From Candidatus Thalassarchaeaceae archaeon (lineage in GTDB: Archaea; Thermoplasmatota; Poseidoniia; Poseidoniales; Thalassarchaeaceae): a stretch of DNA of 48,521 nucleotides. The first letter of the stretch is position 1, and every line of letters starts with the position of its first letter. Below, piece after piece: positions 26,386-47,904 of this stretch. The stretch is taken from NCBI GenBank assembly GCA_030747675.1, contig JASLKH010000056.1, forward strand, positions 1 to 48,521, written 5' to 3'. Made by a program: the position numbers and the translations under genes. A model generated the notes under the pieces. That model made no database searches. It had not been told where the DNA came from and saw nothing but the letters and a program-made list of their open reading frames with translations.

Positions 26386-29300
26386 TTGGAAGACAAATTA
26401 CAAGAGTGCCTCAACATGGTTACTAACAAAGCGGATTTAAGCAAATTGCGCAAATCCGCAGCATATGATTTGTTGGATAAACCATGGGTCGGTTTACTTG
26501 AATTTGTATTATCTAAAGACGCCCAACTGGAAACTTCAGGGGACAAGAAATCATCTCAACGACCCAGGGGTCCACGTGGTCGGGGGCGAAGTGGAAACCG
26601 CAATCCATTCGTTGCTTTACTTGAACCCACGAGTGCATTAATTACATCCGATGCACCACCAGGATACCGTTTAACTGCTCTACTTGTCCAACGCTCATTG
26701 TCTTCTAACCGGTGGAAACCAGAATGGGATAACGACATTGAAAAACTTCGAGATACTTGTAAATCAGGTATTCACCCCGTCTGGTCAGAAATGGCACAAA
26801 AAAGCCACATTATTTCGGAATTAATGTCATACCCAACAAAGAAACCCAAGGCGAGGCAAGGCAACATCAAAAGTTGGGTCGAAGGAGCAAAAATAGATCC
26901 CAATAACAACGAAGCGGTAATCGGTTGGTTGAATGCACCAAACCCATTCAATCTCAACTCAGAAGTAGAGCAAGCAATTCAACGGATAGCAAAAGATATT
27001 ATGAAAAATCGCGCATCGGAAAAACATCTTCTCGCCCTGGAAAAATTAGAAGGAAACCCAAGTCTAATACGAGCAATCATTCACACCAATATTTCCAAGG
27101 AAGCAGCCATTCCCGAACTTGAAAAAATCGTGGCAGAAGACAACGATGTGCAAAGCGTGGCTCAGAATATACTTGAAATAACCCAATTAAGAAATGGAAA
27201 TACTTCATACTGGAAAGCATGCTATTCAGTCAAGGGCGACGACCCTCTTTCCGTGGCCATGCGAAACCAATCATGGAAAAATATCCCTGATAATGCATCA
27301 TTATCTGTTTTAGAATTACAAGAAGGCATCGAGGCCCAAGAAGGTCCAATCGACCCGGCTCTAGAATGGGCACTTTTTGTGGCTCTAATTGGCGATAAAT
27401 TGTTTAAAGAAGCCGATGAATTGGTGTCGGGAATTTCTGTAATTGACAAATCAAGATTACCTCATATTCTCAAATTTTTATCAAATTACAACTCACCTAA
27501 ACTAGTAGAGAGGTTGACCGAAGAAATACACAAATTTAACCATGAAGAAATCATAGAAATCATGAATTCAGATGTTAGAAACACACTTCGAGTATCTGCT
27601 GCTTTAGAATTACAAAAAGAAGGAGGGGATCCATGGGTTGAACACCAAAACTTGGCTTTAGATATAGTTGGCCAAGCAGGCAATGCCTCCCAAATAGGCA
27701 CAATTTTGAGGAAAATAGACAACTCGGCAGAAAAACATCCATATCTAACTTTACTTGTTTACCATTTATTAGATGCAAGTGCCAAAGAAGATCTGCGAGA
27801 ATGGGCAACATCTTCACGTGTTATTTCAATTACAACTTTAGCAAAAGGTTCAGTAAATGACCCTAATACAGCATCTAATAATTTGATTAAAATTCTTGAA
27901 GGCGCCCCTTCGGAAATAGCACCCATACACGCATGCCTTGATCCAAGCGGAATCAAGGCGTTCAATCAATGCCGCCGGGCATTAATGGACGAAGGCGACG
28001 GACTTGTTGCTAAAAATTTACTAGACGAACTTGAAAATTCGGTGAAGAACTCGGGCATGAAACCAATTGAGGAGAATTTATTCATTGCAGTAATTACCGA
28101 CTTACGATTTAACCGAGTGCTCAACCTTCTTGAAAATGGTAAAAAAGAAGATGTAGCAGTGGCGGAAACCTCCCTAAATACGCTAATTGGTAAGACGCCC
28201 CGAATGCGAATAATGGGTGAAGCAAGACAAGCAATCCTCGAATATGGACTATCAATTCCTGCACTTTCTGATTGGCACCGCGAAAATATTCCTTCTTCAC
28301 CGTGGCACCGTCTTATTTTGGCATTTATTGATGTTAGAGATGACAAGCAACTGTCAGCTGCCCGAGGGTTGCGGGATTCGAGTCGAATAGATATTTTCAG
28401 TTACGAAGAAAGGGTTAGATTAGCCAGACGTGCACTAATATTATTTGCACACGCAGGTGAATGGCGTTTGGCTGTTGAAATGCTCGAGAATCCGCATCAA
28501 AGTGCATTAAAGTCTGCTCTAACAAATCAATTCCAATTGTACCTCCACGTTTGTAATGAACAGTCAAAAGGACGCTCCGGCCCCGCTTTAGAACACATTC
28601 TACGTTCCATCAAAAGAGAAGAGGAGTATGACTATGAAAACCCAGAAGGAGAAACAGAGAAACGGACACGTACCACTTACCCTTCTGACGAATTGGATAG
28701 CATGTTCAATTACCCTAACATCCATGGTTTGCCCAAGGAACCATGGCAAGGTCGCATTAGGGCCGCATTGAACGGATTAACAGACAACCGAAGAAGCCCA
28801 ATGAGCCTACTCCAATCTCGCTTCAGAAATATCCTTACAGATAAAGGAACAGTTTCTGAAATTGAAGCGATCGCTAAAGAAGCTGCAGAACTCGACCCAA
28901 TTACTGGGCTAATGATGTTTGAAAGAGCAATAAATTCTGGACAATACTTGAATGAAAAGAAACCATTACTTCGCAGTCAAAAAGCAGTATATTCATTGCA
29001 CCAAGAACAAATCCCAATCAAATCAAGAATGAAATTTAGACATTTACAATTGAAACCAATGGTTTTGATAGACACAAATTTACTTATTGATGCCATAAAA
29101 GAGGAAATTCATCGAGAACTAGGCAACGAAACAGGATCCATCACTTATCAAGGAGGAAGCACATTTCATAGAAAGTTGTATTCTAAAGCAACCAAAAAAG
29201 AAATTGAGTGCTACATCCCATCAATCGTCATCAGTGAATTGATTGCTAGAACCAAGTCACCTCAAAAACTCCGAGAATTATTCACTCAAGATTTGATTGA

Positions 29301-29742
29301 AGATGATAATTGGGAAAAAGCAATTTCAAACCAAGTAGTTTCTGAAAAACGAGCAAAAGTTCTTCGAAATTACAACACATGGTCCCCTGGAGATGTAGAA
29401 CAACTTTCCACTGAGGCAAGTGCTTACAATAAATGTGTAGAAGAATTTCTTGTATCCCAATCGCCTATGTACCAGCGGATCACAGATTACAAATCTAGTA
29501 TGAATAAGAATACATCCAAGAATAGAACATCTATTCAGCGGCAGAAAATATACCCTGAGAGTGGAGACAGAGAAATTATGCGGGTAGGGCGCGCACTCTC
29601 TAATCAATCTATATGGGGCATAGGGTCGATACTTGTTGCCACGCGTGATTCGGACTTCACAGTAGGTTCAAAGATGCTAGAAGATAAGCTAGGATTTGGT
29701 GTGATACGAAAACTGGATGACCTGAATCAGAGGCTTAGGTAA
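26386..29742 (+). CDS. Large helical-repeat protein with a C-terminal PIN nuclease domain
   Basis: 1118 aa. The C-terminus (~29050-29742) reads MVLIDTNLLIDA...YIPSIVISEL...GDREIM...ILVATRDSDF, i.e. the PIN acidic residues. RG-rich patch near the N-terminus. Confidence 0.8.
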   Translation: MEDKLQECLNMVTNKADLSKLRKSAAYDLLDKPWVGLLEFVLSKDAQLETSGDKKSSQRPRGPRGRGRSGNRNPFVALLEPTSALITSDAPPGYRLTALLVQRSLSSNRWKPEWDNDIEKLRDTCKSGIHPVWSEMAQKSHIISELMSYPTKKPKARQGNIKSWVEGAKIDPNNNEAVIGWLNAPNPFNLNSEVEQAIQRIAKDIMKNRASEKHLLALEKLEGNPSLIRAIIHTNISKEAAIPELEKIVAEDNDVQSVAQNILEITQLRNGNTSYWKACYSVKGDDPLSVAMRNQSWKNIPDNASLSVLELQEGIEAQEGPIDPALEWALFVALIGDKLFKEADELVSGISVIDKSRLPHILKFLSNYNSPKLVERLTEEIHKFNHEEIIEIMNSDVRNTLRVSAALELQKEGGDPWVEHQNLALDIVGQAGNASQIGTILRKIDNSAEKHPYLTLLVYHLLDASAKEDLREWATSSRVISITTLAKGSVNDPNTASNNLIKILEGAPSEIAPIHACLDPSGIKAFNQCRRALMDEGDGLVAKNLLDELENSVKNSGMKPIEENLFIAVITDLRFNRVLNLLENGKKEDVAVAETSLNTLIGKTPRMRIMGEARQAILEYGLSIPALSDWHRENIPSSPWHRLILAFIDVRDDKQLSAARGLRDSSRIDIFSYEERVRLARRALILFAHAGEWRLAVEMLENPHQSALKSALTNQFQLYLHVCNEQSKGRSGPALEHILRSIKREEEYDYENPEGETEKRTRTTYPSDELDSMFNYPNIHGLPKEPWQGRIRAALNGLTDNRRSPMSLLQSRFRNILTDKGTVSEIEAIAKEAAELDPITGLMMFERAINSGQYLNEKKPLLRSQKAVYSLHQEQIPIKSRMKFRHLQLKPMVLIDTNLLIDAIKEEIHRELGNETGSITYQGGSTFHRKLYSKATKKEIECYIPSIVISELIARTKSPQKLRELFTQDLIEDDNWEKAISNQVVSEKRAKVLRNYNTWSPGDVEQLSTEASAYNKCVEEFLVSQSPMYQRITDYKSSMNKNTSKNRTSIQRQKIYPESGDREIMRVGRALSNQSIWGIGSILVATRDSDFTVGSKMLEDKLGFGVIRKLDDLNQRLR

Positions 29743-29768
29743 GCCAATAAACTAAAACTGTTAAAATC

Positions 29769-29982
29769 AATTAATTACAGTTAATTAAAAAAAAAAGTAA
29801 TTAATTTCAATTAATTTAATTATGGTGGAATATATCTCCAAAACCCGACACCCTGGTCGACTAAGCCGAATTGATTGATTCTAGAGGGTTTTTCCAAATG
29901 GACTCTAAAAACCCGATCCAAACGAGTGGGTCAACAGCTACACCGAAACTATCTCAAAATATGTAATTAATTGAAATTAATT
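29769..29982. repeat. Five AATTAATT boxes, including an 18-bp perfect inverted repeat flanking a 148-bp core
   Basis: Boxes at 29769, 29799, 29809, 29965 and 29975. 29799-29816 is the exact reverse complement of 29965-29982. Confidence 0.8.
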
Positions 29983-30041
29983 CAATTATTCCGAATAATA
30001 TCCGAATTAAATATAAGATGTGCCTTGTACGCACACATTGT

Positions 30042-31016
30042 ATGGAGACAGCCAAACCAATCCCATCTTCATTTGTCACACGCTTGATGGATGAGGCAAA
30101 ACAAGTAGGTTTGAGCACAGACGAATACTGCAGACTCTTGTTGAACAACGAATCCTTTTACAAACAAAACACCACAACATTTGAAACCGGATCAAACCCG
30201 TTTAAACAACTCAAAGGAAAACAACTCAATCCATCAATCCTAAGCGAAACTATTGACGCCCACCCCTTTACAGAAAATGCATTGGCCGGACATATCAACC
30301 GACTCCTACCTCTCAAAGTAGGGTGCAGGATATTATGGTCAATGATTGATGATTCAGGCATAGGACCAACTCCACGCCAATTTCGTTCAACCATTGCATC
30401 AAAAGCCCATGCATTCAGAATTTTTCTGAAAGGAACGGATGAAAACCAAGCCCGCCCTAGAGGGGATCGCTTACACTCTTCATTCCCAACAAGTAGTGAT
30501 GCTGCTGTGAATAGATTCCTCAACCAATACATGCTTCGAAGAACAGGTACAGGAAACAAATACCCGACAGGAGCGTTGCACGACTTCGGACTTATTGCAA
30601 TATCAGATTCGGGAACGGTACAATTCACAGAGACAGGTCGTAAATTCACTCTTCTTCTGAACCCAGTTATTGATGAAGGAAATTTCCGAGGCGCATCATT
30701 TTCTGCTGATGAACAAGTTCTAATTTTGTCTCAAGTGCGAAGTGAAATGAATCGGGAATGGAAATTTATGCGCCATATCCTAGATGGAATACATCTTGGT
30801 TCAAACACTCCAACATCGCTTCTTTCTAGAATATCTCGCCGTTATGGCCCCGGTACAAAGGCCGATTGGAGCAACTCCGTAATGCCCCACATGCGCAGCG
30901 GTGTATTGGGTAGAATGCAAGCACTTGGTCTAATCAAACGCACATTCACAGAAAACCGAGTTGAGTACAGAGTAACACCTCTTGCACTCGTAATTCTTGA
31001 AGAGGACATGGCTTAA
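30042..31016 (+). CDS. Hypothetical putative DNA-binding protein (RHH-like N-terminus, winged-helix-like modules)
   Basis: SFVTRLMDEAKQVGLSTDEYCRLLL is RHH/CopG-like. GALHDFGLI...VQFTETGRKF and LGRMQALGLIKR...YRVTP resemble wHTH wing ends. The TATA-like TTAAATATAA at 30007-30016 favours a leaderless ATG at 30042. Confidence 0.6.
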   Translation: METAKPIPSSFVTRLMDEAKQVGLSTDEYCRLLLNNESFYKQNTTTFETGSNPFKQLKGKQLNPSILSETIDAHPFTENALAGHINRLLPLKVGCRILWSMIDDSGIGPTPRQFRSTIASKAHAFRIFLKGTDENQARPRGDRLHSSFPTSSDAAVNRFLNQYMLRRTGTGNKYPTGALHDFGLIAISDSGTVQFTETGRKFTLLLNPVIDEGNFRGASFSADEQVLILSQVRSEMNREWKFMRHILDGIHLGSNTPTSLLSRISRRYGPGTKADWSNSVMPHMRSGVLGRMQALGLIKRTFTENRVEYRVTPLALVILEEDMA

Positions 31017-31028
31017 GGGGGTGGGAAT

Positions 31029-31919
31029 TTGATTGCAATACCATGGTCCGCCGCAATATTATTTTCCATATTAGCTGCAATGATCACCTTCGGCCTCTAT
31101 GCAATTCTTTCTGCTGAATCAAATCCCGCTCATGCGGCACGCCTCACCAATGTTCGCGCCTCACCGGTTGCAGCTCCAGCATCCCGTCCTCAGCGATTTG
31201 CATTGGAGGACGAAATGGTTAGAATGAGCAAACCCAAAATTGAGACGCGAGAGTCCGACACCCTTTCTGATCACGATTCTGCTGAGTTGGTCGAAGAAGC
31301 CTCTGTCGAATATGAGGATGAAGATTCCCAACCAATCGAGGATATTCCAGAAATAGAGGAAGAAGCAGAATCCGAGGAAACCCCTGGCACCAATTCCCTT
31401 GATAGTGAATTTTTACTTGAAGAAATTGGGAAGGAATGGCAAATTAAAGCCGGAAGCGGACAATCAGCAACAACATTGGATGAGGCGACCGGAGAGGCAG
31501 TACGAGAATCCGACACATCCGAATTCGAAGAACGCCTTAACCGAGAAGGAGCTCAAACAGGAAAGGTCCAAGTGAGCCTTATTTGGGATAATACGAATGA
31601 TTTGGACCTCAGTGTAGTTTGCCCTTCAGGTGAAAGAATATCTTTTGATCACAAAACGTCACGTTGCGGAGGTAGGTTGGACATTGATATGAACGAATCC
31701 CCCACTAGTGAACAACCCGTTGAGAATATTTATTGGTCAAAGGATTCCGCTCCGAAAGGAGATTACAAGGTCTTTGTCGAACACTTTGAACATCATGCTG
31801 AAGAGGATTTAACAAATTTCCGAATTCTTGTAAACGATGGGGACAATAATAAGGAATTCAAGGGCGAAATTACTAACGACGAACCACCACAATTAGTGTG
31901 TGTTTTTTCTGTTGAATGA
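31029..31919 (+). CDS. Membrane-anchored YfaP/DUF2135-like protein
   Basis: N-terminal TM, acidic linker, then VQVSLIWDNTNDLDLSVVCPSGERI...CGGRLDIDMN...VENIYW...GDYKVFVEHF (~31521-31919). TTG start after a GGGGTGGGA RBS. Confidence 0.75.
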   Translation: MIAIPWSAAILFSILAAMITFGLYAILSAESNPAHAARLTNVRASPVAAPASRPQRFALEDEMVRMSKPKIETRESDTLSDHDSAELVEEASVEYEDEDSQPIEDIPEIEEEAESEETPGTNSLDSEFLLEEIGKEWQIKAGSGQSATTLDEATGEAVRESDTSEFEERLNREGAQTGKVQVSLIWDNTNDLDLSVVCPSGERISFDHKTSRCGGRLDIDMNESPTSEQPVENIYWSKDSAPKGDYKVFVEHFEHHAEEDLTNFRILVNDGDNNKEFKGEITNDEPPQLVCVFSVE

Positions 31920-31928
31920 GGGGTATAA

Positions 31929-32375
31929 ATGCGTTTGACTCGAAAATCACGCCGCAGACAGCGGCTAATTAATCGGGCAAAAACCATCGAGGCGTTGCAA
32001 ACAATAGCCAACGACATTCAAGCTGCATTTGATAACCGTGAAATCACTCACAACGAGGCCGTGATTTTAGGTAATCAAATTCAAAGATGCGCTGATTTGA
32101 TAGATGGCACACAACTGGTGTACGCAATTTCAGATCGCGACGCATACCGCCGATTAATTGAAGTATATCTCGATGACGGAATTCTATCAAGAACAGAACA
32201 AATATTACTTTGGGACGAACGCAGGAAACTGGGTATTTCAGAGGACGCCCACACCCGATTACTTGTGGCATTAATCGCTCGTTACCAGCGGCAAGGCCGA
32301 CCAGTTCATGTTCAAAATGCACCCCGCTCTATCCCAAAATCGGGCGCCGATGAAAATACAGGAGGGAGCAATTAG
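31929..32375 (+). CDS. Small TerB-like helical protein
   Basis: AFDNREITHNEAVIL and YLDDGILSRTEQILLWDERRKLGISEDAHTRL. Confidence 0.6.
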   Translation: MRLTRKSRRRQRLINRAKTIEALQTIANDIQAAFDNREITHNEAVILGNQIQRCADLIDGTQLVYAISDRDAYRRLIEVYLDDGILSRTEQILLWDERRKLGISEDAHTRLLVALIARYQRQGRPVHVQNAPRSIPKSGADENTGGSN

Positions 32376-35300
32376 TTGGCAATTGAAGTAGGGTATATCG
32401 TTGCAGCCTTAATTGCAGGTGTACTAATATGGCAAGCCACATCACAATTGGGGTCAAAGCGCCGCACCCGCACATCGTTATTGGAAACCTTCGCGATAGA
32501 AGACATTGCGGTTGCCGATGAACCATTCACGCCACGTAAAGATTCAAACGCATCTTTACTCACACCCCGAATTGAATATCAAGAAGAATTAATCCCATTC
32601 GGATCAACACATTCTTTGGAAAAAGCACCAGATATAAAGAACGAAAAAGAAAGTAACTTAGAGGGAGAGGTAACCACACTAAAAGAAGTCGCCATCGAAC
32701 GTTATTCAGTTAGAGAGAGATCGAATGAGAAAGTTTCTGAATGTAAGGAACTTATCCAATTAATCAAAGATTTACGAGAGCAATACAATGTAGAAATAGA
32801 TGATGAATTCTTAGAAGGGCCATTAGAAGGACTAACATTAGCAGAGTTGGACATTCGCCAATCATCTCTCTTGGAAGTTTATGATAAATTATACCAACAT
32901 TCCTTCCAAGAGCAAGTTCAAAAAGTTCGTCGGGAGCAGCTTGAATTCGAATCAAAAGTTGGTGAAAAAGAAAACCAAACAGCGGCTGGAAAACTGGCAA
33001 ACCTCGCCGATGAATTATCCAATTTACGTCGCGAAGAAGAATTGTATCGCCAAATTCAATCTTCAAAAACAACCAAAACTCTTGAATCATTAGATATGTC
33101 TAACCTCGATGTAGATACAACAAAACGCATCACGGCACACTACGACTTTTACTATTCTAGATTAAGTGAAATAGAACGACTACGCACAGAATCCGAAAGA
33201 TACGAATTCCATACCAACGCCATTCTAGATTGTGATGAAAAAGAGAAGTTACTGACAATGGTCTTTGACGGCGTCAACACTAGGATGCGAGTTGAATTGG
33301 AAGAGCGGAGAGAAAAACGGGCAATAGCACTTGATTTACGCGATAAGATGGAGCAACAAAATGCCAACGCGGCAGAACTTCGCCTAGAAATCGAAACAGC
33401 AGTAAGCACAACAGCAATCGATCAAATACAAATCACAGGAGTTAGCCCCCTGCAAGAAAATGAACTCACCGAATTACTCCATGTTACGCGTCAGCAACTG
33501 GCATATTCAGAACTTGAAACTATAATACAGAATTGCGAATATGTTTTGGAACTAGATGCAATACACTTTGAAGGGGTGAATGAAGAACAACTCACAGCCC
33601 TCATTGAGATAAGAGCCAACAAAAGAGCCGAACTGGTCGAGTTTGCTAAACTGGAGAAATTTGAGGAACAATACACTGCATATCTCGACTCAATGCCTGG
33701 GATAGATGACATTGAGGAACTTTTAGGGATAGAAATTGAAAACGTGTCAGAATCTCAAGCCCAGGAATTAGAGAATCTCCGACTTTCTAGATTGGATCAT
33801 TTAGAAGAAATTGAGAGGATACGAATTGAACAAGAACAAGCAGAAAACTTTGAAAATCTCAGGAAACAACTTGAATCAGCGAAGACCTCTAATGAGGTTG
33901 AAGCAATTGTAATCGAAGGGGTCAACGAAGATCAAGAATTAGCGCTGACCGAGATTAAATCAGAAGTATTCGAGATTCTGTTAGAAGATGAAAAGGTAAC
34001 AGAATATGTTGAAAAGGCAGAAAAAGCAAGCAAATCCCCTCCCTCTCCGGATAATTTTGATTTCGACACCGAGTCAACATTTAGGACACGCGTTAAAACA
34101 TTAGGTGCAAAGGATGGCCTCCTTCGCCTTAGTTTACTCTGGAACAATAAGAATGATTTGGACCTAATTGTTCGAACTTCAAAAGGAGAAATTATTCACA
34201 GAGGTTCTCGAAATTCATCTTGTGGTGGAATATTGGATTTAGAAATGAATGCCAAACCAGAGATGAGTTCAGCGATGGAGAACATTGTGTGGCCCAACGG
34301 AAAGATCCCCCCCGAAGGAACATACAACATTTTCATTTGGCATCGGAACCGCCACCAAAAATTGCGAAGAACAGATCCAACAGAATATACACTACGAGCA
34401 AAAGTCGGTGCAGAGTATTTCCAATATGAGGGAAAAATTAGTTATGGGGACAATTTACGATTAATCGCCTCAATTGAAGTCCCCGAATCGAATACAATGC
34501 AAAATAGAATGGTCACTGAAGGCAATTTGTATCAAGAATTACGAAGTACTGCAAAATCAGCAAAGAAGTTGAAAGAATTTCCAGAAATAGACGATGAACT
34601 CTCATCATTACACAAAGTGATGTTAGAGCGAATCATTGAGAAAAAGACATCAGAAATCAAAGAAAAAGCGGAAAGACGCCGTGCAGAAAAACAAGCAGCA
34701 GAATATTCACGCATAATACTGGAAATCGAATCATCAATGAATTTGGATGAATTATCAGCAGTTCGATATGACAAGGCTTCCGATGAAGAAATAGTCACTA
34801 TTGAAAAATTGATTACTAAGCGAAGTAAAGCAATCGAATCAGGCTTAAAGAAGCAAGAAATTATGGAGATGAAACAAAGAATCCAGGATTTCAAAACCCA
34901 AATTAATGAAGCCAAAACACTCGTTGATCTTTCATCAATAATTTTCGATGACATCGAAAAAAGAGACGCCATTACTCTACAAAGACTACGTACAGCTAGA
35001 CGAAAAACTCTCCAAAAGAAACTTTCAACAGACGATGTCGAGAAAGATAAACAAGATCGCTTACACAAGGCTTTGAATGAAGCCTACAGTCGTGGAGGCC
35101 TGCAACCATTACCTGCCGATGAGGGCCGACCATCGGCATTCAATGAGCGCCTAGAGGACGCCAATGCAGGCATCGGAGATGTCCAAATATCACTCTTGTG
35201 GGACAACAAAAATGACTTCAATGTTCTAGTGATTACCCCCTCACAAGAAATTATTCATCCTCGGAATCGAAAGTCATCAGATGGAGGATATCAGGATATT

Positions 35301-35543
35301 GAAATGAATCAGAAAGGCGAATCAAAGGAACCTATTGAGAATATTTTCTGGCCTGAAGGCAAGGCCCCAAAAGGCCTTTATTACATCTACATACATTTCT
35401 ATAAAGAGCATCAATTATTCAGAAAAATTGACATTTCTGAATGCCGAGTCCAAATCTTATATCAAGGACAACGGACAGAATATGCTGCACAGATGTCACT
35501 TTCTAATAAATTACAATTCATTACAATGCTTAAGGTGGAATAA
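32376..35543 (+). CDS. Membrane-anchored helical-repeat protein with two YfaP/DUF2135-like domains
   Basis: N-terminal TM followed by SKRRTR, a Glu-rich helical rod, YfaP-like domain 1 (~34077-34490; LSLLWNNKNDLDL...CGGILDLEMN...ENIVW) and domain 2 (~35136-35543; ISLLWDNKNDFNV...ENIFW). Confidence 0.8.
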   Translation: MAIEVGYIVAALIAGVLIWQATSQLGSKRRTRTSLLETFAIEDIAVADEPFTPRKDSNASLLTPRIEYQEELIPFGSTHSLEKAPDIKNEKESNLEGEVTTLKEVAIERYSVRERSNEKVSECKELIQLIKDLREQYNVEIDDEFLEGPLEGLTLAELDIRQSSLLEVYDKLYQHSFQEQVQKVRREQLEFESKVGEKENQTAAGKLANLADELSNLRREEELYRQIQSSKTTKTLESLDMSNLDVDTTKRITAHYDFYYSRLSEIERLRTESERYEFHTNAILDCDEKEKLLTMVFDGVNTRMRVELEERREKRAIALDLRDKMEQQNANAAELRLEIETAVSTTAIDQIQITGVSPLQENELTELLHVTRQQLAYSELETIIQNCEYVLELDAIHFEGVNEEQLTALIEIRANKRAELVEFAKLEKFEEQYTAYLDSMPGIDDIEELLGIEIENVSESQAQELENLRLSRLDHLEEIERIRIEQEQAENFENLRKQLESAKTSNEVEAIVIEGVNEDQELALTEIKSEVFEILLEDEKVTEYVEKAEKASKSPPSPDNFDFDTESTFRTRVKTLGAKDGLLRLSLLWNNKNDLDLIVRTSKGEIIHRGSRNSSCGGILDLEMNAKPEMSSAMENIVWPNGKIPPEGTYNIFIWHRNRHQKLRRTDPTEYTLRAKVGAEYFQYEGKISYGDNLRLIASIEVPESNTMQNRMVTEGNLYQELRSTAKSAKKLKEFPEIDDELSSLHKVMLERIIEKKTSEIKEKAERRRAEKQAAEYSRIILEIESSMNLDELSAVRYDKASDEEIVTIEKLITKRSKAIESGLKKQEIMEMKQRIQDFKTQINEAKTLVDLSSIIFDDIEKRDAITLQRLRTARRKTLQKKLSTDDVEKDKQDRLHKALNEAYSRGGLQPLPADEGRPSAFNERLEDANAGIGDVQISLLWDNKNDFNVLVITPSQEIIHPRNRKSSDGGYQDIEMNQKGESKEPIENIFWPEGKAPKGLYYIYIHFYKEHQLFRKIDISECRVQILYQGQRTEYAAQMSLSNKLQFITMLKVE

Positions 35544-35545
35544 CA

Positions 35546-38500
35546 ATGACAGGAAACACAGAAAAAACGTCGAAAGTGGCACCCACCCTCCTTATTTTGA
35601 TTATGCTAATCCAAATTTTATCCCCATTCCAAATCCCCAATAATTTGCAATCCGAGCAAGAAATATCAGATTCTACATTAGGGCGAACAGCCTACCCTGA
35701 CATCAATATTACAGCAATTATTTGGATTGGACCCTCATATTATTGCATTCTATGTGTTATTGATGTGCTGGCACCTGTTGAACAAGAAGTCATGATAAAA
35801 TTCCGCAACGATGGTTTACTGAAGGCTGACAGCACTCATTTCCGATTCGATGTTAATTCAGTAGAAATAGCCAATCATACATTTTTCAATGTCATGCCTG
35901 GGGAGGAACAAAACTACATTTTCACATGGACCCCAACTTTAGGTAATGGCCAAACATTCCAAGCATATGCAGCAATAACACCCGTGGGCGCAGACCCAGA
36001 TATGTCCAATAATCAAAAAATCAAGGGTTTCAACTCTTACTTTGATCAAAACGATGGAGATATTTACTCCGATACATTACCACCGGGAGGAACCAGGTTA
36101 CCAGGGGAACCATCAAGTGTTTCTGTTGGTGTTAGAAATGCAGGAAACACAGAAAGTGAAGTTACGACATTAATCTCCCTCACCCCCAGTGGGGGGGGGC
36201 CACCGACTGAATTTTTCTCACAACCGATCAATTTGTCTGCTGGAAGTGTGGCAGAACCAGCTCAAGTAACGTTATCCTCAGTGATGATTGATGGTACAAA
36301 TCTCTCAGGTAGTTATATGATGGCAGGCAATGTTTACTTCAATAGTACACTAGCCCCTCAGGCAGTCGTATCAATTGTCCCGAGAATAGTCACCTTTAGT
36401 CCATATCGGGCCACCATAGTGTCCCCAAGTGACCGTGCAGTCGAACCAGGAAACTCAGCCACCCTGACATTCATAGTTCAAAACATAGGCGAATCTGCAG
36501 ACCGATTCAATATTTCAGTACACTCAGTGCAAGGCTGGTTTGACTCTTCATCCCCGTCCGCACCCGCTTCACAAACTCCAATTATATCACCGGGCTCTTC
36601 AGCCGTAATCCTAGTCCCTGTATCAGTCCCATTAAACACAAATCGTTCAGAATCAGATCTAATTACTGTGGAAATTGAGAGTGAAGGCGCAGTACCATCG
36701 TACAATGTTTCAGGATCCTCTGCTGTTATGGCAGGAGACATATTACAAGGAACTCTAAACACATCAGCGTGGAATGTGCAAATAATTCCGGGTCAAACAG
36801 AATCGATACAATATACGTTAAACAACACAGGAACATCTCCATCATTCTTTGAACTTGATACAGGCTTTGCTCAGGTTGCACCCGGTTGGTCAGCCACAAT
36901 TGAACCTGAAACAACACCCTACATGACTGTTGGAGCATCCATTGTAGTTACAGTCACAGTATCCCCTCCTGCTCTTTCATTACCATTTGATCCAACAACG
37001 AAACTCGCTGAAGGCAATTCCTTGACATTGTGGACAACTGTCCAACCCACATTACAAGACCAAACTGCAGGCGCCCCAAATGTTCAGGAAACAATTCTTG
37101 AAGTCCAACCTGCAGTTATGATTGAATTTATCACAGATGAAACAGATCTAATAGTTGACATATCTGAATTAAATTCAGGTGCGATTGGAAAGCACATCTA
37201 TTTCGATATGGAACTTCGTCATAATTTAATGAGTAATTTAAGCTCTTTAGTTGACATAGAATTGCGAACAGCCCCTAGTGCTTTTGACCCCTCGAGAAGC
37301 GGAGTAGGCTCACAAGAAATTTTGAGATGGAATAGTTCTGTGACACCGAATAATGCAACAATGAATCCAGGTGATACACAGGCCCTCTTGGCTTCAGCAC
37401 TGGGGCCATTCGAAAGTCCCCTTGCCGGAATCATAAGCATCGATGTTATTGCCAATTTGACATTATCTGGAGCCTTAAGTGGTATTCAGGCCCCAGAAAC
37501 AACTCTAACATGGAGTATTTCCATTCCTGAATTAACTGAGGTGGAAATCGGAATCCCAGAACCCACAATAGTTGTCCCTGGAATCTCCGGCACAGCATCA
37601 GTAAACATCAACAATACAGGGAACCACAAGACAAATCTGTCATACACAGTAGAAGGTCCGGCAGGTTGGACAGTTTCAACTTCTCCAACGGAAGTTACAG
37701 GGTTGGGCTCAACATTCGATACATACCCTTCTATTGGAACCGATAATACAACTGTTTCAGTGACAGCAATAGCCCCTGCTCTTTGGCGTGCCGATGATGT
37801 ACCAGACATAACCCTGACAGTTTTGGATGAAAATGGTGAAAATGTCACCCAAGAAAATATACCTTTCTTGGTCCAAGAATTGATCGAAGCCGTACTTTTA
37901 CCCGATGAAGCAGCAGCCTATCTCCCAGTTAATGAAACAGAAATTATCCTGTTGAAAGTAACAAATTCAGGTAATAGTCATCAAGAATTTTCTATGATGG
38001 TTGAGGATACCTTAGCAGACATAAACTTACGAGTCCTCTCAAATTCAACGATGTCACTAGATCCCGGTGAAGATGCCTTCGTTGATATCGAAGTTGAATC
38101 AGGCCAATTCGCACGAGCCGATGAAAACCATAGTTCAGTTGCAACTCTATATCACAACGGTGTCGGCATCGCTCAAACCTCAATCTTTGTAGAAGTATTA
38201 CCTAATCACGACATCGTATTCGAACACCATCCTGATTACTCAGTTACGCCCGGCAAGGAAGCACCAATCGCATTCAATATTACAAACAACGGAAATCTCG
38301 ATGAGAATATCAATTTCTCAGCAATTCTTCCAGAAGGTTGGAGTGCAGAAATAAGCCCTGAAAACATGACAATATCAGCCGGCACCCAGGAAGTAAAAAC
38401 AGTCAATGTAGTCGTTAATGTACCACCAATGTCAAGTGGTTCAGGCCCTGAAGCTGACAGTACTCATGAAATGCTTTTCACTGCTACAAACGCTACCGAC

Positions 38501-40330
38501 AATGTAATTGCTGGAACTACAGTAGTGAATTTTACGACAGTCCCCATTTTCGATATTGAAGCTGAGAACTTCCCCGATTTAATTGAGATGTTACCAGGTG
38601 AGCAACGAACGTTCGAGGTCGAGATTTCAAACGCAGGAAACCAAAATGTGTCCTTAGACATTGATTGCACAGCAGGACCCCCCTTCGATCGCTGGTTAGT
38701 TTCAAATTGTGATCAAAGCAATTATTCTCTCGACATTGGCGAAACACGAAGGATCAACTTTACAGTTGAAAATTCTGCATTGGTGCCCTACAATGGCGAT
38801 GAGGCCGATTTAACTTTGACATTTTCACCACAAGACAACCAATCAGGAGATAGAACAATATCTTCAGAATTAGAAGTCAAAAGAATGTGGACGGAAGAAG
38901 AGTACATGGTCACAGGAGACGGAGATTCTGGAGGGTATCCAATAGATGTCAATTGGATGCATGTCCAATCCATCGGACAAACAGCCGACGTACGTCCGAT
39001 TGATTACGAATTAAAACTCATTAATTCAACCCGTTTGATTAACACCTCATTGTATAATGGAAACCTCAATTGGGGCTTTGAATTGATTACCAGTAATGGC
39101 GCCCAAACATTCAATCCAAATTCTATTCCAACAAATTTCTCCCTAGGTGCGGCCCAGCCATTACAATTGAACAATTTACAATTTAGGCTAGACCTCCCAC
39201 CATCGGCAATTACCCCACCTGGAGATGGCTGGGTTTTGGAATTTGAACTCATCCACGCAGAAGAAGGAAATGCCACCTCAACCACAGTATTTCTTAACGT
39301 GACAGTTGATAATTGGGCAGACCCATCTATTGTATCAATTTTAATCAATGATGAATCCTTTTTCGAAGAATCTAATTCGGGGACAATAATTGCCACGATT
39401 GAAAATAATGGCAACGCTCCAACAGTCTCCAATCTGACTGCAGAACTAACTTGCGATCCAGGGATTACAATTCTCAGCCCCCCAGTTAAATCAAACATCA
39501 ATCTAACAGCCCATCAAAGCAACTATCCATTGGAATGGAGCATCAAATCAGATGCATTAAATTGGTGGCAATCGAGTCAAAATGTGGATTGCAAAGTAAC
39601 ACTTTCTTCGAATGGGGAAATGATAGGGGATCTTGAATCAAACAATGTACTCGAATCACCAATCGAATTGAATTCATGGTCCCTTCCTCTATACATATTG
39701 GTTCCATTAATTAGCGCCCTCTTCATACTGTCTAGCCGCCTCTTAAGAAAGGCAAAAGAGGACGAAAGATCATTGATGTTGAGTGCATACTCGGGTTCAA
39801 TATTACTTGGGTGCGCAACCCAATTCGGACTGGGTTCCGGACCAAACCTTGCCCTTGCAGCAACATCGCTAATTTGGACCGCTTTGATAACTTTGCATTC
39901 AGCAGGATTTGAATTCCCTGCCGTCTTATCCGATCGGCAAAACCATCTTCGAGGAAGCGAATCAATTATTGAAGATCACGATGCTGAAATTGATCGAATC
40001 ATCAATCAACTCAGAGTAAAAATATCATTCGCCCCAATTGGTTTCATCCTCATTGCACTCTTGATGCCTTCTGACATCGCATGGACACTTGAGAATATAG
40101 GATCCAGCGCCCTATATTTGTTCATGAGTGCCTTGATTGTTGAATTGACAATTCGTAGAACATTAGCAACATGGCTTTCTATCTTCGATCAATTAACAGT
40201 AGTAGAAATTGAGTCCCAAGATCTTCTCCAGCTACTAGGAACACCATCTACAGATTTACGTAGAATTACAATAGGACAACGATGGGGACAATCCCATGAT
40301 GTCAATGTGGAGGTGGAAGGCAATGTCTGA
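35546..40330 (+). CDS. Giant surface protein with CARDB/NEW3-like Ig repeats and a polytopic C-terminal anchor
   Basis: 1594 aa. N-terminal hydrophobic signal, repeated (V/I)xNxGN...L.PGE beta-sandwich motifs (VRNAGN, VQNIGE, LNNTGT, INNTGN, VTNSGN, ITNNGN, ISNAGN, IENNGN), then about five TM segments. Confidence 0.85.
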   Translation: MTGNTEKTSKVAPTLLILIMLIQILSPFQIPNNLQSEQEISDSTLGRTAYPDINITAIIWIGPSYYCILCVIDVLAPVEQEVMIKFRNDGLLKADSTHFRFDVNSVEIANHTFFNVMPGEEQNYIFTWTPTLGNGQTFQAYAAITPVGADPDMSNNQKIKGFNSYFDQNDGDIYSDTLPPGGTRLPGEPSSVSVGVRNAGNTESEVTTLISLTPSGGGPPTEFFSQPINLSAGSVAEPAQVTLSSVMIDGTNLSGSYMMAGNVYFNSTLAPQAVVSIVPRIVTFSPYRATIVSPSDRAVEPGNSATLTFIVQNIGESADRFNISVHSVQGWFDSSSPSAPASQTPIISPGSSAVILVPVSVPLNTNRSESDLITVEIESEGAVPSYNVSGSSAVMAGDILQGTLNTSAWNVQIIPGQTESIQYTLNNTGTSPSFFELDTGFAQVAPGWSATIEPETTPYMTVGASIVVTVTVSPPALSLPFDPTTKLAEGNSLTLWTTVQPTLQDQTAGAPNVQETILEVQPAVMIEFITDETDLIVDISELNSGAIGKHIYFDMELRHNLMSNLSSLVDIELRTAPSAFDPSRSGVGSQEILRWNSSVTPNNATMNPGDTQALLASALGPFESPLAGIISIDVIANLTLSGALSGIQAPETTLTWSISIPELTEVEIGIPEPTIVVPGISGTASVNINNTGNHKTNLSYTVEGPAGWTVSTSPTEVTGLGSTFDTYPSIGTDNTTVSVTAIAPALWRADDVPDITLTVLDENGENVTQENIPFLVQELIEAVLLPDEAAAYLPVNETEIILLKVTNSGNSHQEFSMMVEDTLADINLRVLSNSTMSLDPGEDAFVDIEVESGQFARADENHSSVATLYHNGVGIAQTSIFVEVLPNHDIVFEHHPDYSVTPGKEAPIAFNITNNGNLDENINFSAILPEGWSAEISPENMTISAGTQEVKTVNVVVNVPPMSSGSGPEADSTHEMLFTATNATDNVIAGTTVVNFTTVPIFDIEAENFPDLIEMLPGEQRTFEVEISNAGNQNVSLDIDCTAGPPFDRWLVSNCDQSNYSLDIGETRRINFTVENSALVPYNGDEADLTLTFSPQDNQSGDRTISSELEVKRMWTEEEYMVTGDGDSGGYPIDVNWMHVQSIGQTADVRPIDYELKLINSTRLINTSLYNGNLNWGFELITSNGAQTFNPNSIPTNFSLGAAQPLQLNNLQFRLDLPPSAITPPGDGWVLEFELIHAEEGNATSTTVFLNVTVDNWADPSIVSILINDESFFEESNSGTIIATIENNGNAPTVSNLTAELTCDPGITILSPPVKSNINLTAHQSNYPLEWSIKSDALNWWQSSQNVDCKVTLSSNGEMIGDLESNNVLESPIELNSWSLPLYILVPLISALFILSSRLLRKAKEDERSLMLSAYSGSILLGCATQFGLGSGPNLALAATSLIWTALITLHSAGFEFPAVLSDRQNHLRGSESIIEDHDAEIDRIINQLRVKISFAPIGFILIALLMPSDIAWTLENIGSSALYLFMSALIVELTIRRTLATWLSIFDQLTVVEIESQDLLQLLGTPSTDLRRITIGQRWGQSHDVNVEVEGNV

Positions 40331-41186
40331 ACAGGTTTTACCTCCAACTCAAGAGAGTTACAGAGCCCAAGTTACGAGATTAAATTTAATTCTTGACGAG
40401 CACATTAGAATGGTCCAAGAATCAATTGTAGACAAAGATGCTAGGGATGCTAGGAAGAGTATTCAGCAAGCGCGTTTAGACATTGATAACCTACGTTTGC
40501 AAGTCGGTAGAATGCATCGGGCGATTGGAATGTTGCACACACTTATGCGAGACCGCTCAACAACTGAAACTGAATTGGTTGACATATTGTTGACAATGAA
40601 AACAGCTGAAACCCTAATCATGCGAGGTGCCTTTGATGAATCTGCATTACAACTCGAACGACTAGCAGAACATCTATTGGCAAACAGTGCTGCTTTGAAT
40701 CCCTTTATTTTCTATGAATTTTGGATGGGAGTTGAAGCAAGGTGGAGTTCAGATTCAGAAAGTGGAAATTTATTGGTGAGGATAGAAAACACAAGCGAAA
40801 ACATCATTCCTGGATTCAATATTAAAGCCCCAGTTCCTCCAAATTGGAGAGCATCCCCAGACTCTCAATTTACAGGCACATTGAATCCTGGAGACATTTC
40901 GGATTTGGCATTTGAAATAACCCCGTCTGCAATGGCAGCAATTAGAGAAGTAGGCGCCCCAGGGAGCCTCCAAAAAAGTCTAACAATACAAACAGGATAT
41001 ACACTTTCAAACCATGGACTAACCATGGATTGTAGAGTAAAAAATACATCACAAGAGACCCTATATGACACATTATTAATGCCTTGGATTCCACCTGGTT
41101 GGAAAACACCTTCATGGCCATTTATCCGTAATTTAGATCCGAGTTCCACCGAATTGGTATCAATTTCATTGGAGTTGATCAATTGA
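40323..41186 (+). CDS. Hypothetical protein: helical N-terminal half plus two Ig-like (NEW3-like) modules, no signal peptide
   Basis: ATG at 40323 overlaps the upstream stop and follows a GGAGGTGGA RBS. Modules VRIENTS...VPPNW...LNPGD and RVKNTS...IPPGW...LDPSS. Confidence 0.7.
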   Translation: MSEQVLPPTQESYRAQVTRLNLILDEHIRMVQESIVDKDARDARKSIQQARLDIDNLRLQVGRMHRAIGMLHTLMRDRSTTETELVDILLTMKTAETLIMRGAFDESALQLERLAEHLLANSAALNPFIFYEFWMGVEARWSSDSESGNLLVRIENTSENIIPGFNIKAPVPPNWRASPDSQFTGTLNPGDISDLAFEITPSAMAAIREVGAPGSLQKSLTIQTGYTLSNHGLTMDCRVKNTSQETLYDTLLMPWIPPGWKTPSWPFIRNLDPSSTELVSISLELIN

Positions 41187-41271
41187 TAATTTGGTTGGGG
41201 CAGGATAGGGCTTGTGGGACTACAATAATATACCTCATGGGACCTAATTGAAAACACAAGGAGTTGAGTAA

Positions 41272-41850
41272 ATGAGACAAAAAGAACAAGCCCTGAAAGA
41301 GAATGGAATGGCCGCGATCGGAATCGGTGCAATGATCATATTCATTGCCCTGATTTTAGTAGCCGCAGTAGCATCGACAATTATCATCAAAACAGCTGAA
41401 GAACTTCAACAGAGAGCTGAAGCAACCGGCGACGATACACGTGACGAAATTAGTGGTAAAATCCAACTGGTTGGCGCATATGTTAGTGATGATAACGCTG
41501 CAGGAAACGCTGCAGATGAAATCACACTAATCGTGCAACTCAGTGCCGGTTCAGATACAACACTTCTTTCTAATATGGATTGGTTCATCGTTTGTGATGG
41601 TGGTGCAGGTACTTCAGATGTCAACACCGATGACTTTGACGGCGTTGCAACTGATCTTGACGGTACACTACTCACGGTCGGTTCGTCAGTCAATGCCGGT
41701 GAAACATTCCTAGTTCCAATTGACACCTCAACAAACTGTCAACCCGGTGTTGGTGACGAACAAGAACTTCGTGTAATCATCGATGGTGGTGGCGAAACTT
41801 ACGCCCAACTACATTACAATAGCGTAGACAACGGCGACACAATCGTCTGA
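41272..41850 (+). CDS. arlB: Archaellin
   Basis: AIGIGAMIIFIALILVAAVASTIIIKTAEELQQRAEATG type IV pilin-like N-terminus. AAGGAG RBS and TATA-like AATAATATA at ~41224 upstream. Confidence 0.92.
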   Translation: MRQKEQALKENGMAAIGIGAMIIFIALILVAAVASTIIIKTAEELQQRAEATGDDTRDEISGKIQLVGAYVSDDNAAGNAADEITLIVQLSAGSDTTLLSNMDWFIVCDGGAGTSDVNTDDFDGVATDLDGTLLTVGSSVNAGETFLVPIDTSTNCQPGVGDEQELRVIIDGGGETYAQLHYNSVDNGDTIV

Positions 41851-41865
41851 GCACATCATTCTCCT

Positions 41866-41885
41866 CCCCCTGTTTATTCAGGGGG
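41866..41885 (+). terminator. Hairpin immediately downstream of arlB (terminator or processing/stabilising element)
   Basis: CCCCCTG-TTTATT-CAGGGGG, a 7-bp stem starting 15 nt after the arlB stop. Confidence 0.45.
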
Positions 41886-41909
41886 TGTGAGATATGTAGA
41901 GTGGATAGT

Positions 41910-42722
41910 ATGGGTATATTCAGCAAACTTTTCGGCGGGAAATCCGAAACAGAACTCGTTGAGTCTGAATCATCTCGTCGATTAGAGGCATTGTCAGGAC
42001 ATTACATAGATTCAACTTTAATTCCCGATGAAGCAGTCCCCATCGAAGAGGACGCTTGGACATTAGCACCATCTCCTACTCGTGCAAGAGTGGGTACAAC
42101 TGGCGCAGAACCAATGATTAAAGAGGAACCAGCACCCCAAGGGGTTGCTGCAATTGACACAAAAGAGATTGAACAAAAAATGGACAACCGCTTCGATAGA
42201 ATAGAAGCGACCATGGCAATGATGGATGCCAGATTAACCCAGATTCGTGAAACTACAGAAACATCCCACATATTGCCTACAGACACATTAGTTACTGCAG
42301 AAGAAGACTCAGAAGAAGACTCAGAAGGGCAACAATCTGACTCAGACGAGGGAGAATCGACATCCATCAGTCAAACAGTGAGTCTATTGGATTTGTATGA
42401 AGACCGAGTGGCAGACCTCAATCCCTTTCTTGAACGAAGACCAGGTGATCAAGATGCAGGACTATCGGTAACTACGAGCGAAATTGCCGCGTTATTATTG
42501 GATAATTTGTCTGGACCAGCCACCACTACATTTCTTGTCAAAGCGAAGGAAAGTGGAACAATTAGTGCCGCTGAAACCAAAGAATTGGGAGGCCTCATCC
42601 AACTCGCCGATCCCGCCGTTAACAACAACGGTGGTGAGCATTTACCACATAGAGAATTACTAATGTTCAATGCAATGATTGAAGCTTGGCGCGTTGCTAA
42701 AACCAATGATGAGGGGGCCTGA
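41910..42722 (+). CDS. Probable divergent ArlC/D/E-like archaellum accessory protein
   Basis: Position between arlB and arlF. MGIFSKLFGGK start, short coiled coil, acidic linker and a helical C-terminal domain loosely like FlaD/E. Confidence 0.5.
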   Translation: MGIFSKLFGGKSETELVESESSRRLEALSGHYIDSTLIPDEAVPIEEDAWTLAPSPTRARVGTTGAEPMIKEEPAPQGVAAIDTKEIEQKMDNRFDRIEATMAMMDARLTQIRETTETSHILPTDTLVTAEEDSEEDSEGQQSDSDEGESTSISQTVSLLDLYEDRVADLNPFLERRPGDQDAGLSVTTSEIAALLLDNLSGPATTTFLVKAKESGTISAAETKELGGLIQLADPAVNNNGGEHLPHRELLMFNAMIEAWRVAKTNDEGA

Positions 42723-42725
42723 AAT

Positions 42726-43127
42726 GTGGGTGGCTCCGTTAGTATCGCAGCATTGATTGTTGGAACCACTCTGCTAGGGATTTTTGCCCTAGCGTCACTA
42801 TCACTTTCAGAAAGTACAAAACAGGCAGCGGAAGCAGGAAGCGAGTCAATCCATGAACCTGAAATTAGATTGATTAATGCTTCAGAGAGTAGTGGTATTG
42901 TGAATGTAAATATCACAAACACAGGGTCTGAAACAATTTCTTTCGATCACCTTTGGCTCAGCATTGATGGGGATGCCCCCATTCGTACAAGCAGCCATTA
43001 CAACCTCACTCTGTCTTTATTCCCTGGTGAAACTCAACATCTTACACTGACTGGAACAGGAGCCAACTCCCCTTCTAGAATTTCAGCAGCTTGTTTCGGG
43101 GCCCATTCAGCGGTTGCATTCACATGA
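42726..43127 (+). CDS. arlF: Archaellum stator protein ArlF
   Basis: MGGSVSIAALIVG N-terminal TM like FlaF (MGFSVS...), plus an ITNTGSETI beta-sandwich and L(F)PGE. Synteny agrees. Confidence 0.75.
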   Translation: MGGSVSIAALIVGTTLLGIFALASLSLSESTKQAAEAGSESIHEPEIRLINASESSGIVNVNITNTGSETISFDHLWLSIDGDAPIRTSSHYNLTLSLFPGETQHLTLTGTGANSPSRISAACFGAHSAVAFT

Positions 43128-43133
43128 GGTGTT

Positions 43134-43622
43134 ATGATGGCTGATGGTGGTGCCAGTGAATTGGTGATGTTGGTAACGGGTTTACTGACGGCAGGAATTG
43201 TTGCGAGTTTACTAGTAGCATCATGGGGTAGTTTAGCAGAGATTGTTGGCGATACTCAAACCCAAATCCAAGTCGACTCCAAGACCCGGGCATCATTAGC
43301 CAGTGACCCAATGCAGATTGCATGGGATCAGGCGACATGCAATCTCACAATCCATATCCAAAATTCAGGGGAACTCCGCTTGAAGATGGATAATATTGGT
43401 GCAATCGTCAATGGGACACCAACATCTGTTTCAGGTTCCCAATTAATTGGTTCTGCAATTGCATGGACAAGTGGTGAAGTAGCAGAATTCTATCTATGCC
43501 CTACAGGTTTGAATTTGGCAACAGGACAGGAGACACCCTTGATTATCATTGTTCAAAGTGAGGAATATAGTGGAGATATTTCCGGCAAGCATTCCTTTTC
43601 AGAGGTGATTAGAATTGCCTGA
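43134..43622 (+). CDS. arlG: Archaellum stator protein ArlG
   Basis: MADGGASELVMLVTGLLTAGIVAS N-terminal TM, IQNSG, WTSGEV. Synteny agrees. Confidence 0.78.
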   Translation: MMADGGASELVMLVTGLLTAGIVASLLVASWGSLAEIVGDTQTQIQVDSKTRASLASDPMQIAWDQATCNLTIHIQNSGELRLKMDNIGAIVNGTPTSVSGSQLIGSAIAWTSGEVAEFYLCPTGLNLATGQETPLIIIVQSEEYSGDISGKHSFSEVIRIA

Positions 43623-44310: not shown

Positions 44311-44320
44311 GGTGAGATAA

Positions 44321-46048: not shown

Positions 46049-46056
46049 GGGATTAT

Positions 46057-47850: not shown

Positions 47851-47904
47851 AATCACAACTGATTTGAATGATTCCCTCGCCCGACAATCTAAGGAGGAGT
47901 GCCT

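Follow-up and report, generated by a model that had tools for sequence, protein, structure and literature searches.

The window analysed here is a 48,521-nucleotide (nt) stretch of contig JASLKH010000056.1 from a Candidatus Thalassarchaeaceae archaeon (assembly GCA_030747675.1). Its positions 31029-41186 carry five co-oriented genes, g1 to g5, which an earlier reading of the sequence (the original prediction) had presented as a self-contained system of YfaP-like, TerB-like, helical-rod and giant-adhesin proteins. We find that the five genes are real and conserved, and that they are the unannotated front half of the archaellum locus of the Poseidoniales (Marine Group II, MGII), not a free-standing system. 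The block is firmly tied to the archaellum by synteny and phyletic pattern. This link, the main clue to function, had been left out of the original prediction; the archaellum genes begin 85 nt downstream of g5 with arlB (41272-41850). We consider it probable (about 0.6) that the block encodes lineage-specific archaellum accessory proteins with a structural or assembly role, combining an envelope anchor, collar or adhesin with a cytoplasmic scaffold.

Gene content, synteny and phyletic distribution

The features of the locus are listed below, with lengths in amino acids (aa), transmembrane segments given as TM and ribosome-binding sites as RBS. The names g1 to g5 denote the five flagged genes; genera g1, g2, g12, g14 and g15 are separate labels, always marked as genus or genera.

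29743-30017, + strand: spacer before up1, 275 nt, AT-rich; carries repeated GAATTAATTC-type palindromes and, some 20 nt 5' of the up1 ATG, a TATA-like AATAATAT
30018-31016, + strand: up1, 332 aa, syntenic, with its own RBS
31029-31919, + strand: g1, 296 aa; TM segment at aa 9-27, acidic linker, one YfaP/DUF2135-like domain (31518-31916)
31929-32375, + strand: g2, 148 aa, basic, six helices, highly conserved
32376-35543, + strand: g3, 1055 aa; N-terminal TM segment followed by KRRTR, about nine helical repeats of about 55 aa
34074-34481 and 35133-35540, + strand: the two YfaP-like domains of g3
35546-40330, + strand: g4, 1594 aa; N-terminal signal/anchor, about 1,300 aa of Ig-like repeats, multi-TM block, cytoplasmic tail
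about 39677-40165, + strand: C-terminal multi-TM block of g4
40323-41186, + strand: g5, 287 aa, without a TM segment; three-helix N-terminal part and two tandem Ig-like beta-sandwiches
41224-41232, + strand: TATA-like box AATAATATA, about 40 nt 5' of the arlB ATG, from the alignment of orthologous loci
41272-47850, + strand: archaellum genes arlB, d2 (273 aa), d3 (133 aa), ArlG/F-like, arlH, arlI and arlJ

The open reading frames (ORFs) at 31029-41186 were confirmed, and the gaps were exactly those claimed: 9 nt between g1 and g2, 0 between g2 and g3, 2 between g3 and g4, and an overlap of 8 (-8) between g4 and g5, with a GGAGG/GGTGG-type motif before every start. The longest frame for g5 opens at 40296, and both the orthologues and the RBS favour 40323. 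A unit of five genes is too narrow a description, since up1, which is syntenic, has its own RBS and stops 12 nt 5' of g1, probably is the first gene of the unit, while at its other end the block abuts arlB. From the tight junctions, the RBS motifs, the upstream spacer and the box before arlB, we infer that up1 to g5 are transcribed as one unit and that arlB has a strong promoter to itself. Pfam matches downstream comprised Arch_flagellin, the KaiC-type ATPase (ArlH), T2SSE (ArlI) and T2SSF (ArlJ).

Within the genus, all seven fetched loci (7/7) were colinear from up1 to the gene after arlJ, and to this extent the expectation of a syntenic module held; across the order, only g2-g4-g5 was kept, always heading the archaellum operon. 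The order g2-g4-g5-arlB, with ORFs overlapping or abutting, was found in genomes of f1, f2 and f3 (f3 being the Poseidoniaceae, in which the overlaps are 1-17 nt and the YfaP proteins lie elsewhere), and the arl genes were colinear in all related loci. The sister genus and genus g15 keep g2-g4-g5-arlB and have a divergent g1-like gene beside an up1-like gene; the search for a g3-like gene covered only the former, where it lies on another contig. Genera g12 and g14 have no detected g2, and a divergent gene for a two-YfaP-domain protein of about 390 aa abuts g4-g5-arlB. One f2 genome encodes a 940-aa YfaP protein after arlJ. All five archaellated genera of the Thalassarchaeaceae have a YfaP-domain gene next to the locus, with three arrangements among them. 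Because of these arrangements across three families, we take g2-g4-g5 and the arl genes as the order-wide core and g1/g3 as variable companions. The latter are co-oriented here, divergent in four genera, behind arlJ in one genome and unlinked in the Poseidoniaceae; they do not travel with the core, contrary to the view of a self-contained five-gene system.

Directly after arlJ, the related loci encode a conserved multi-TM protein of about 440 aa with 55-61% identity in the genus (for example L013:17935-19260). Its partial copy in the window (47899-48519, 3' open) had no Pfam match.

The phyletic distribution was read from 121 genomes of Thalassarchaeaceae from 13 genera, each with a completeness of at least 80%, with the caveat that related genera are not independent and that linked genes vanish together from incomplete metagenome-assembled genomes (MAGs). 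Five genera carried arlI, namely genera g1, g2, g12, g14 and g15, and the YfaP domain, g5 and g4 were found in exactly these five and in 0/74 genomes of the other eight. The g4 gene is single-copy and was present in 40 of the 46 genomes of archaellated genera; g2 was present in three of the five genera. In genera g12, g14 and g15 the gene adjacent to the locus is the only YfaP-domain gene of the genome. A class-wide sample gave g5 in 98/100 Poseidoniaceae and in 0/24 genomes of two further families. Presence and absence within the window's genus, where 6/23 genomes lack the block, was rejected as evidence, as MAG completeness of 63-84% explains it equally well. Most of 41 sampled genomes, including ones in which the archaellum-type arlI was not found, encode a second ATPase of the ArlI/T2SSE type, with 35-36% identity to ArlI, which is probably part of a different system resembling a type IV pilus.

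The YfaP-like domain and the proteins that carry it

The repeated domain of about 135 aa, present once in g1 and twice in g3, has 35% mutual identity among its three copies and 31 invariant columns in their alignment. The Pfam DUF2135 model (PF09906) covers 48 positions only and has a gathering score of 22 bits; hmmscan of the three copies against it gave no match at E<=10, and its best hit in a six-frame search of the window, at 35364-35414, was under that score (12.2 bits, E 0.41). A profile built from the three copies retrieved 6,062 representative clusters (50% identity) and matched E. coli YfaP (from NC_000913) with 24.7 bits, a score of 47.7 bits being reached with a 178-sequence profile. 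In hhalign the match to E. coli YfaP had a probability of 98.6% and an E value of 9e-16 over YfaP residues 142-227, and Atlas neighbours selected by features and predicted structure were named DUF2135/YfaP, with template-modelling scores of 0.94-0.97. The homology of the repeated domain to the C-terminal domain of E. coli YfaP is solid, and the claim of three YfaP-like copies on two membrane-anchored proteins is upheld by profile, hhalign and structural neighbours alike. The shared helix that had been noticed before each copy was seen at every copy but is part of the domain itself, as profile positions 1-15 were matched in most of the 150 best relatives. A PDB sequence search with the three-copy profile found no match. 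Outside the window, at G000:C5:3-4352 (+), we noted a very acidic surface-type ORF of more than 1,450 aa with the best DUF2135 score of the genome, 16.3 bits, which is sub-threshold.

Which side of the membrane the domain occupies was considered for the family and for the Poseidoniales separately. Among the 150 best relatives, 75 had no N-terminal TM segment in their first 80 residues, and the other 75 were divided into 34 C-in, 32 C-out or signal-like and 9 ambiguous, so that the family would, from these predictions, be found on both membrane sides. The g1 and g3 proteins have a single N-terminal TM segment each. We read 20 Poseidoniales YfaP-domain proteins from the fetched loci, and those bearing a TM segment had, in their likeliest start frames, a short N-tail free of K and R (uncharged or acidic), one TM segment and then a basic cluster (KKRT, GRRK, RRLRELLAARR). 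By the positive-inside rule applied over these homologues, g1 and g3 are predicted to be N-out/C-in membrane tethers with their rod and YfaP domains in the cytoplasm. The composition of g3 (K+R 14%, D+E 19%, N-x-S/T sequons not in excess) agrees with this placement, and in the sister genus the g3 homologue lacks a TM segment altogether. The orientation that the original prediction had drawn from the basic residues behind one TM segment holds, the same pattern being present in every Poseidoniales homologue examined. A MotB/ExbD-like anchor for g1/g3 was rejected: the TM segment has no acidic residue and the predicted topology is opposite.

The rod of g3 is built from about nine copies of a helical unit of about 55 aa with the pattern '...AIxhEGVxExQxxxLxEIR...' and does not form a simple coiled coil. 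For g1 and g3, direct scans with Pfam and NCBIfam gave nothing usable.

The predicted surface protein g4, its putative partners and the upstream region

Pfam assigned CARDB, NPCBM_assoc, FixG_C and HYDIN-type Ig domains to g4. The protein has 37 N-x-S/T sequons where 20.5 are expected and only 3.6% K+R, and therefore fits an exported glycoprotein; its C-terminal anchor has five TM segments. It diverges evenly along its length, to 20-30% identity with other families, and its size is roughly kept, mostly at 1,560-1,720 aa. An S-layer protein should be present irrespective of motility. In contrast, g4 was found in 0/74 non-archaellated genomes versus 40/46 archaellated ones, and, being limited to archaellated genera, it is therefore not a general cell-wall protein.

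The g5 protein has no TM segment. Its model (predicted local distance difference test score, pLDDT, 78.5) shows the three-helix part and two Ig-like sandwiches, and fold searches with Foldseek and VIA-align returned generic tandem Ig domains only (transglutaminase C-terminal barrels, pilus chaperones, FixG-related) together with three-helix bundles, while direct Pfam and NCBIfam scans gave nothing usable. With the Ig domains of g4 and the lack of a TM segment in g5, the earlier description of a 1594-aa Ig-repeat surface protein and a soluble partner stands. We observed an invariant N-P-F-[LI] motif in both g5 ('LNPFIFYEFW', 20/20 orthologues) and d2 (41901-42722; 'LNPFLERR', 13/13), which could be coincidental or point to a short binding motif common to both.

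These properties bear on a different view of the block, namely that it is a co-regulated adhesin cassette in which g4 would attach cells to particles or algae, g5 and g2 would be its chaperone or insertion/regulatory partners, and the YfaP proteins would be unrelated, co-regulated neighbours. The tandem Ig-like CARDB/NPCBM_assoc domains, the sequon enrichment and the fast, uniform divergence of g4 all suit such a cassette, and so does the promoter-like box that arlB has of its own. Rinke 2019 (PMC6461757), noting that MGII have no che genes, also argued that the archaellum serves adhesion. On the other hand, the length of g4 is roughly constant despite only 25-30% identity across families, whereas the repeat numbers of adhesins usually drift. 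Adhesins do not usually combine a 5-TM anchor with a cytoplasmic two-Ig protein whose translation is coupled to theirs. Moreover, g4 is single-copy and occurs strictly in archaellated genera, and the same phyletic pattern of the YfaP-domain proteins is left unexplained. We therefore regard the cassette as unlikely, though the likeliest of the alternatives.

The AlphaFold2 model of g2 (pLDDT 85.6) has six helices. The protein is 51% identical between families, with long invariant stretches, and in other lineages its translation is coupled to that of g4. The original prediction called it TerB-like, with an analogy to the membrane-stress systems in which TerB occurs. Pfam TerB (PF05099) did not match g2 at E<=0.1, nor the orthologues P0246, P0162 and P0234 at E<=1. 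Foldseek of the g2 model against PDB returned nothing at E<=0.001, and the top hits of VIA-align (ENT/EMSY at Z 7.5-7.9, Tic110 at Z 6.7) are within the noise range of helical proteins. A PDB sequence search gave short helical grazes only, and Pfam/NCBIfam scans nothing usable. A segment resembling the g2 core, RMVLADGIITPSEDQLLWIMRQNLGIS, was noted outside the window in a 336-aa protein with N- and C-terminal zinc ribbons (G000:C40:4848-5864, +). This paralogue shares with g2 the motif DG-x-[IL]-x3-E-x3-L...LGIS and grazes both TerB (E 0.006, below cut-off) and ENT; matching ORFs of 340-390 aa are present in most of 41 sampled Poseidoniales genomes, some of which yielded no archaellum genes. 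Because there is no TerB match, the fold hits are at noise level and the motif is shared with this paralogue, the TerB-like label is not established for g2, and no test favoured the membrane-stress analogy. A defence-system reading was rejected as well: PADLOC gave one 15-bit graze for g2 and nothing else.

The g2 results also bear on whether the five genes could be an autonomous trans-envelope or stress system of the TerB/YfaP type that lies beside the arl genes by chance. Such a system would account for the tight packing with RBS motifs, the YfaP homology is real, and the paralogue with the g2-like motif does touch TerB. Nevertheless, the five genes do not stay together: the sister genus has g3 at another place, four genera have a divergent g1, and two yielded no g2. 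The phyletic distribution of all parts follows that of arlI, PADLOC showed no family beyond the graze, and g2 itself has no TerB match. This reading is already largely refuted, and we hold it to be highly improbable.

Upstream of the block, up1 had no Pfam family, Pfam/NCBIfam scans of it gave nothing usable, and a PDB sequence search found nothing. It was syntenic in 7/7 same-genus loci, and up1-like genes adjoin the YfaP gene in two other genera. The ORFs beside the YfaP gene in genera g12 and g14 were considered as up1 homologues and rejected as unrelated (15% identity on alignment). Behind the divergent two-domain YfaP gene, these two genera (L031:2156-3286 and L032:16105-17307) have a gene that does not resemble up1; its product carries the Cys-rich motif YTPHGC...RCP in its C-terminal part. 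The up1 product may be a DNA-binding protein, resembling ribbon-helix-helix or winged helix-turn-helix proteins. Several GAATTAATTC / GTAATTAATT palindromic repeats were seen within the spacer 29743-30017, and a TGAATTAATTCATTAA element was found 5' of up1 in two orthologous loci also (L013:1-63; L014:1-99). The spacer is the probable promoter/operator of up1-g5, and it is possible that the palindromic repeats and TGAATTAATTCATTAA form an operator for a DNA-binding up1. Between g5 and arlB, the AATAATATA box is kept in eight orthologous loci and probably is arlB's own promoter. Further upstream, 5' of the spacer, positions 26386-29742 of the window encode a 1118-aa helical protein with a faint C-terminal PIN match (E 0.073); the fetched related loci end before its counterpart, so its synteny is not readable from them.

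One could also envisage a surface-sensing input, in which the g4 ectodomain would sense particles or polysaccharide and signal via its TM block, g5/g2 and the YfaP tethers to the motor or to its expression. The membrane-crossing architecture with cytoplasmic partners, the carbohydrate-module-associated Ig domains of g4 and a possibly DNA-binding up1 at the head of the unit would be in line with this, as is the genome search for CheW, which gave none over cut-off. The six proteins, however, contain no recognisable kinase, receiver, HAMP, PAS or cyclase domain, and nothing sets such a sensor apart from a purely structural role. We consider it improbable.

Proposed role and known counterparts

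Our preferred reading, that the block encodes archaellum accessory proteins, can be drawn as follows. The g4 protein would present a large glycosylated Ig-repeat ectodomain on its 5-TM anchor in the envelope, at the archaellum or close to it, and would act there as a collar for anchoring or as an adhesin. Its cytoplasmic loops and tail would be bound by g5 and, in most lineages, by the small basic g2, and overlapping stop and start codons would keep g5 and g2 in a fixed ratio with g4. The g1 and g3 proteins would hang YfaP beta-sandwiches on the inner face of the membrane, g1 by its acidic linker and g3 by its helical-repeat rod of about 500 aa, and could form a membrane-tethered cytoplasmic scaffold around the ArlH/I/J motor. 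This scaffold would fill the role of ArlC/D/E, ArlX or the polar cap in other archaea, and up1 may regulate the unit. In its boldest form, g1/g3 together with g2, g4 and g5 would be a structural replacement for these components, a new class of motor scaffold and envelope collar, and would give YfaP/DUF2135 its first function, namely to serve a rotary machine as cytoplasmic lattice or binding module; we offer this as a speculation that we rate as rather unlikely.

Several points weigh against an archaellum role. The genus-level co-occurrence may reflect one or two losses, since the motile MGIIb clades are basal (Tully 2019, PMC6336850), and genes on the same contig may be lost together in incomplete MAGs. 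Not all members are universal parts, g2 being absent from the finds in two archaellated genera and g1/g3 being unlinked in the Poseidoniaceae. Given the conserved TATA-like box in front of arlB itself, expression of the block may be separate from that of the arl genes. Finally, g4 evolves fast (25-50% identity), as adhesins do, and no block protein had a fold or sequence match to a known motor component.

In surface ocean water no archaea are more abundant than those of Marine Group II. Their archaellum may serve for swimming or for attachment to particles (Rinke 2019, PMC6461757; Tully 2019, PMC6336850), and none of the Poseidoniales is in culture (PMC6336850). 'Several orthologous proteins lacking annotations' were reported in the putative MGII motility operon (Tully 2019, PMC6336850, Fig. 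4 and text), and the domains of the block proteins are described in neither PMC6336850 nor PMC6461757. The variable motor-scaffold proteins were not detected in the MGII archaellum locus, which always carries uncharacterised genes instead, and assigning these would show how the archaellum is anchored and organised in the Poseidoniales. Through the block, the YfaP/DUF2135 domain, with its more than 6,000 representative clusters at 50% identity, could also be placed in a functional context for the first time, and g4, g5 and the YfaP proteins would be better genomic markers of a motile or attached lifestyle in metagenomes.

Four kinds of known proteins offer a comparison. Like the Ig-repeat surface proteins of the CARDB/NPCBM_assoc 'choice-of-anchor' or S-layer-like type, g4 has an N-terminal signal/anchor and a dozen Ig-like domains and is sequon-rich and acidic. 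Unlike them, it has a 5-TM C-terminal anchor instead of a single TM segment or sortase-type signal, a coupled cytoplasmic partner and a distribution limited to archaellated genera.

The repeated domain shares with E. coli YfaP and PF09906 a beta-sandwich of about 90-130 aa and the motifs W-D/N-x-x-N-D-L-D-L-x-V, G-E, G-G-x-L-D-x-D and G-x-Y-x-V. E. coli YfaP differs in having a Sec-type signal peptide and in lying in the yfaS (alpha-2-macroglobulin) cluster, whereas the domain of g1/g3 is predicted to be tethered N-out/C-in at the cytoplasmic face, is duplicated on a helical rod in g3 and is linked to arl genes. No macroglobulin domain was found among the neighbours scanned by Pfam, which are the arl genes. 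The library searched yielded no paper on DUF2135 or on yfaP together with macroglobulin, and to our knowledge the domain has no known role. Weaker is the likeness to the PPC and P-domain beta-sandwiches of subtilase C-termini, whose matches are position-consistent, spanning the motifs SLxW..NDLDLxV..PxG ... VENxF ... GxYxVxV, and all below significance (P_proprotein E 0.065; subtilase C-domains 5fax/1wmd E about 1 in PDB with a 20-sequence profile). In one Atlas neighbour cluster 44% of the members carry PPC. These domains, in contrast, are appendages of extracellular proteases, and the block has no protease.

The fourth comparison is with the lineage-specific archaellum accessory proteins: ArlX of Crenarchaeota, ArlC/D/E of Euryarchaeota and the polar cap, whose composition is unknown. 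The block has no sequence or fold similarity to ArlX, ArlC, ArlD or ArlE. The proteins g1-g5 had no match to FlaC_arch (PF05377) or Arch_fla_DE (PF04659), a genome-wide search with PF04659 (ArlD/E) gave nothing over cut-off, and no ArlX homologue was detected. The d2 orthologues were searched against FlaC/Arch_fla_DE as well, and with one of 13 matching at E 0.079 and the rest not at all, d2 is not recognisably ArlC/D/E. We know of no counterpart of a giant extracellular Ig-repeat membrane protein in described archaellum operons. Like these accessory proteins, the block lies within the arl cluster or at its head, is co-oriented with it and occurs in archaellated lineages only, varying between lineages while ArlB/F/G/H/I/J are constant; its proteins, like ArlX and ArlC/D/E, would be cytoplasmic or membrane-tethered and have helical and coiled-coil regions.

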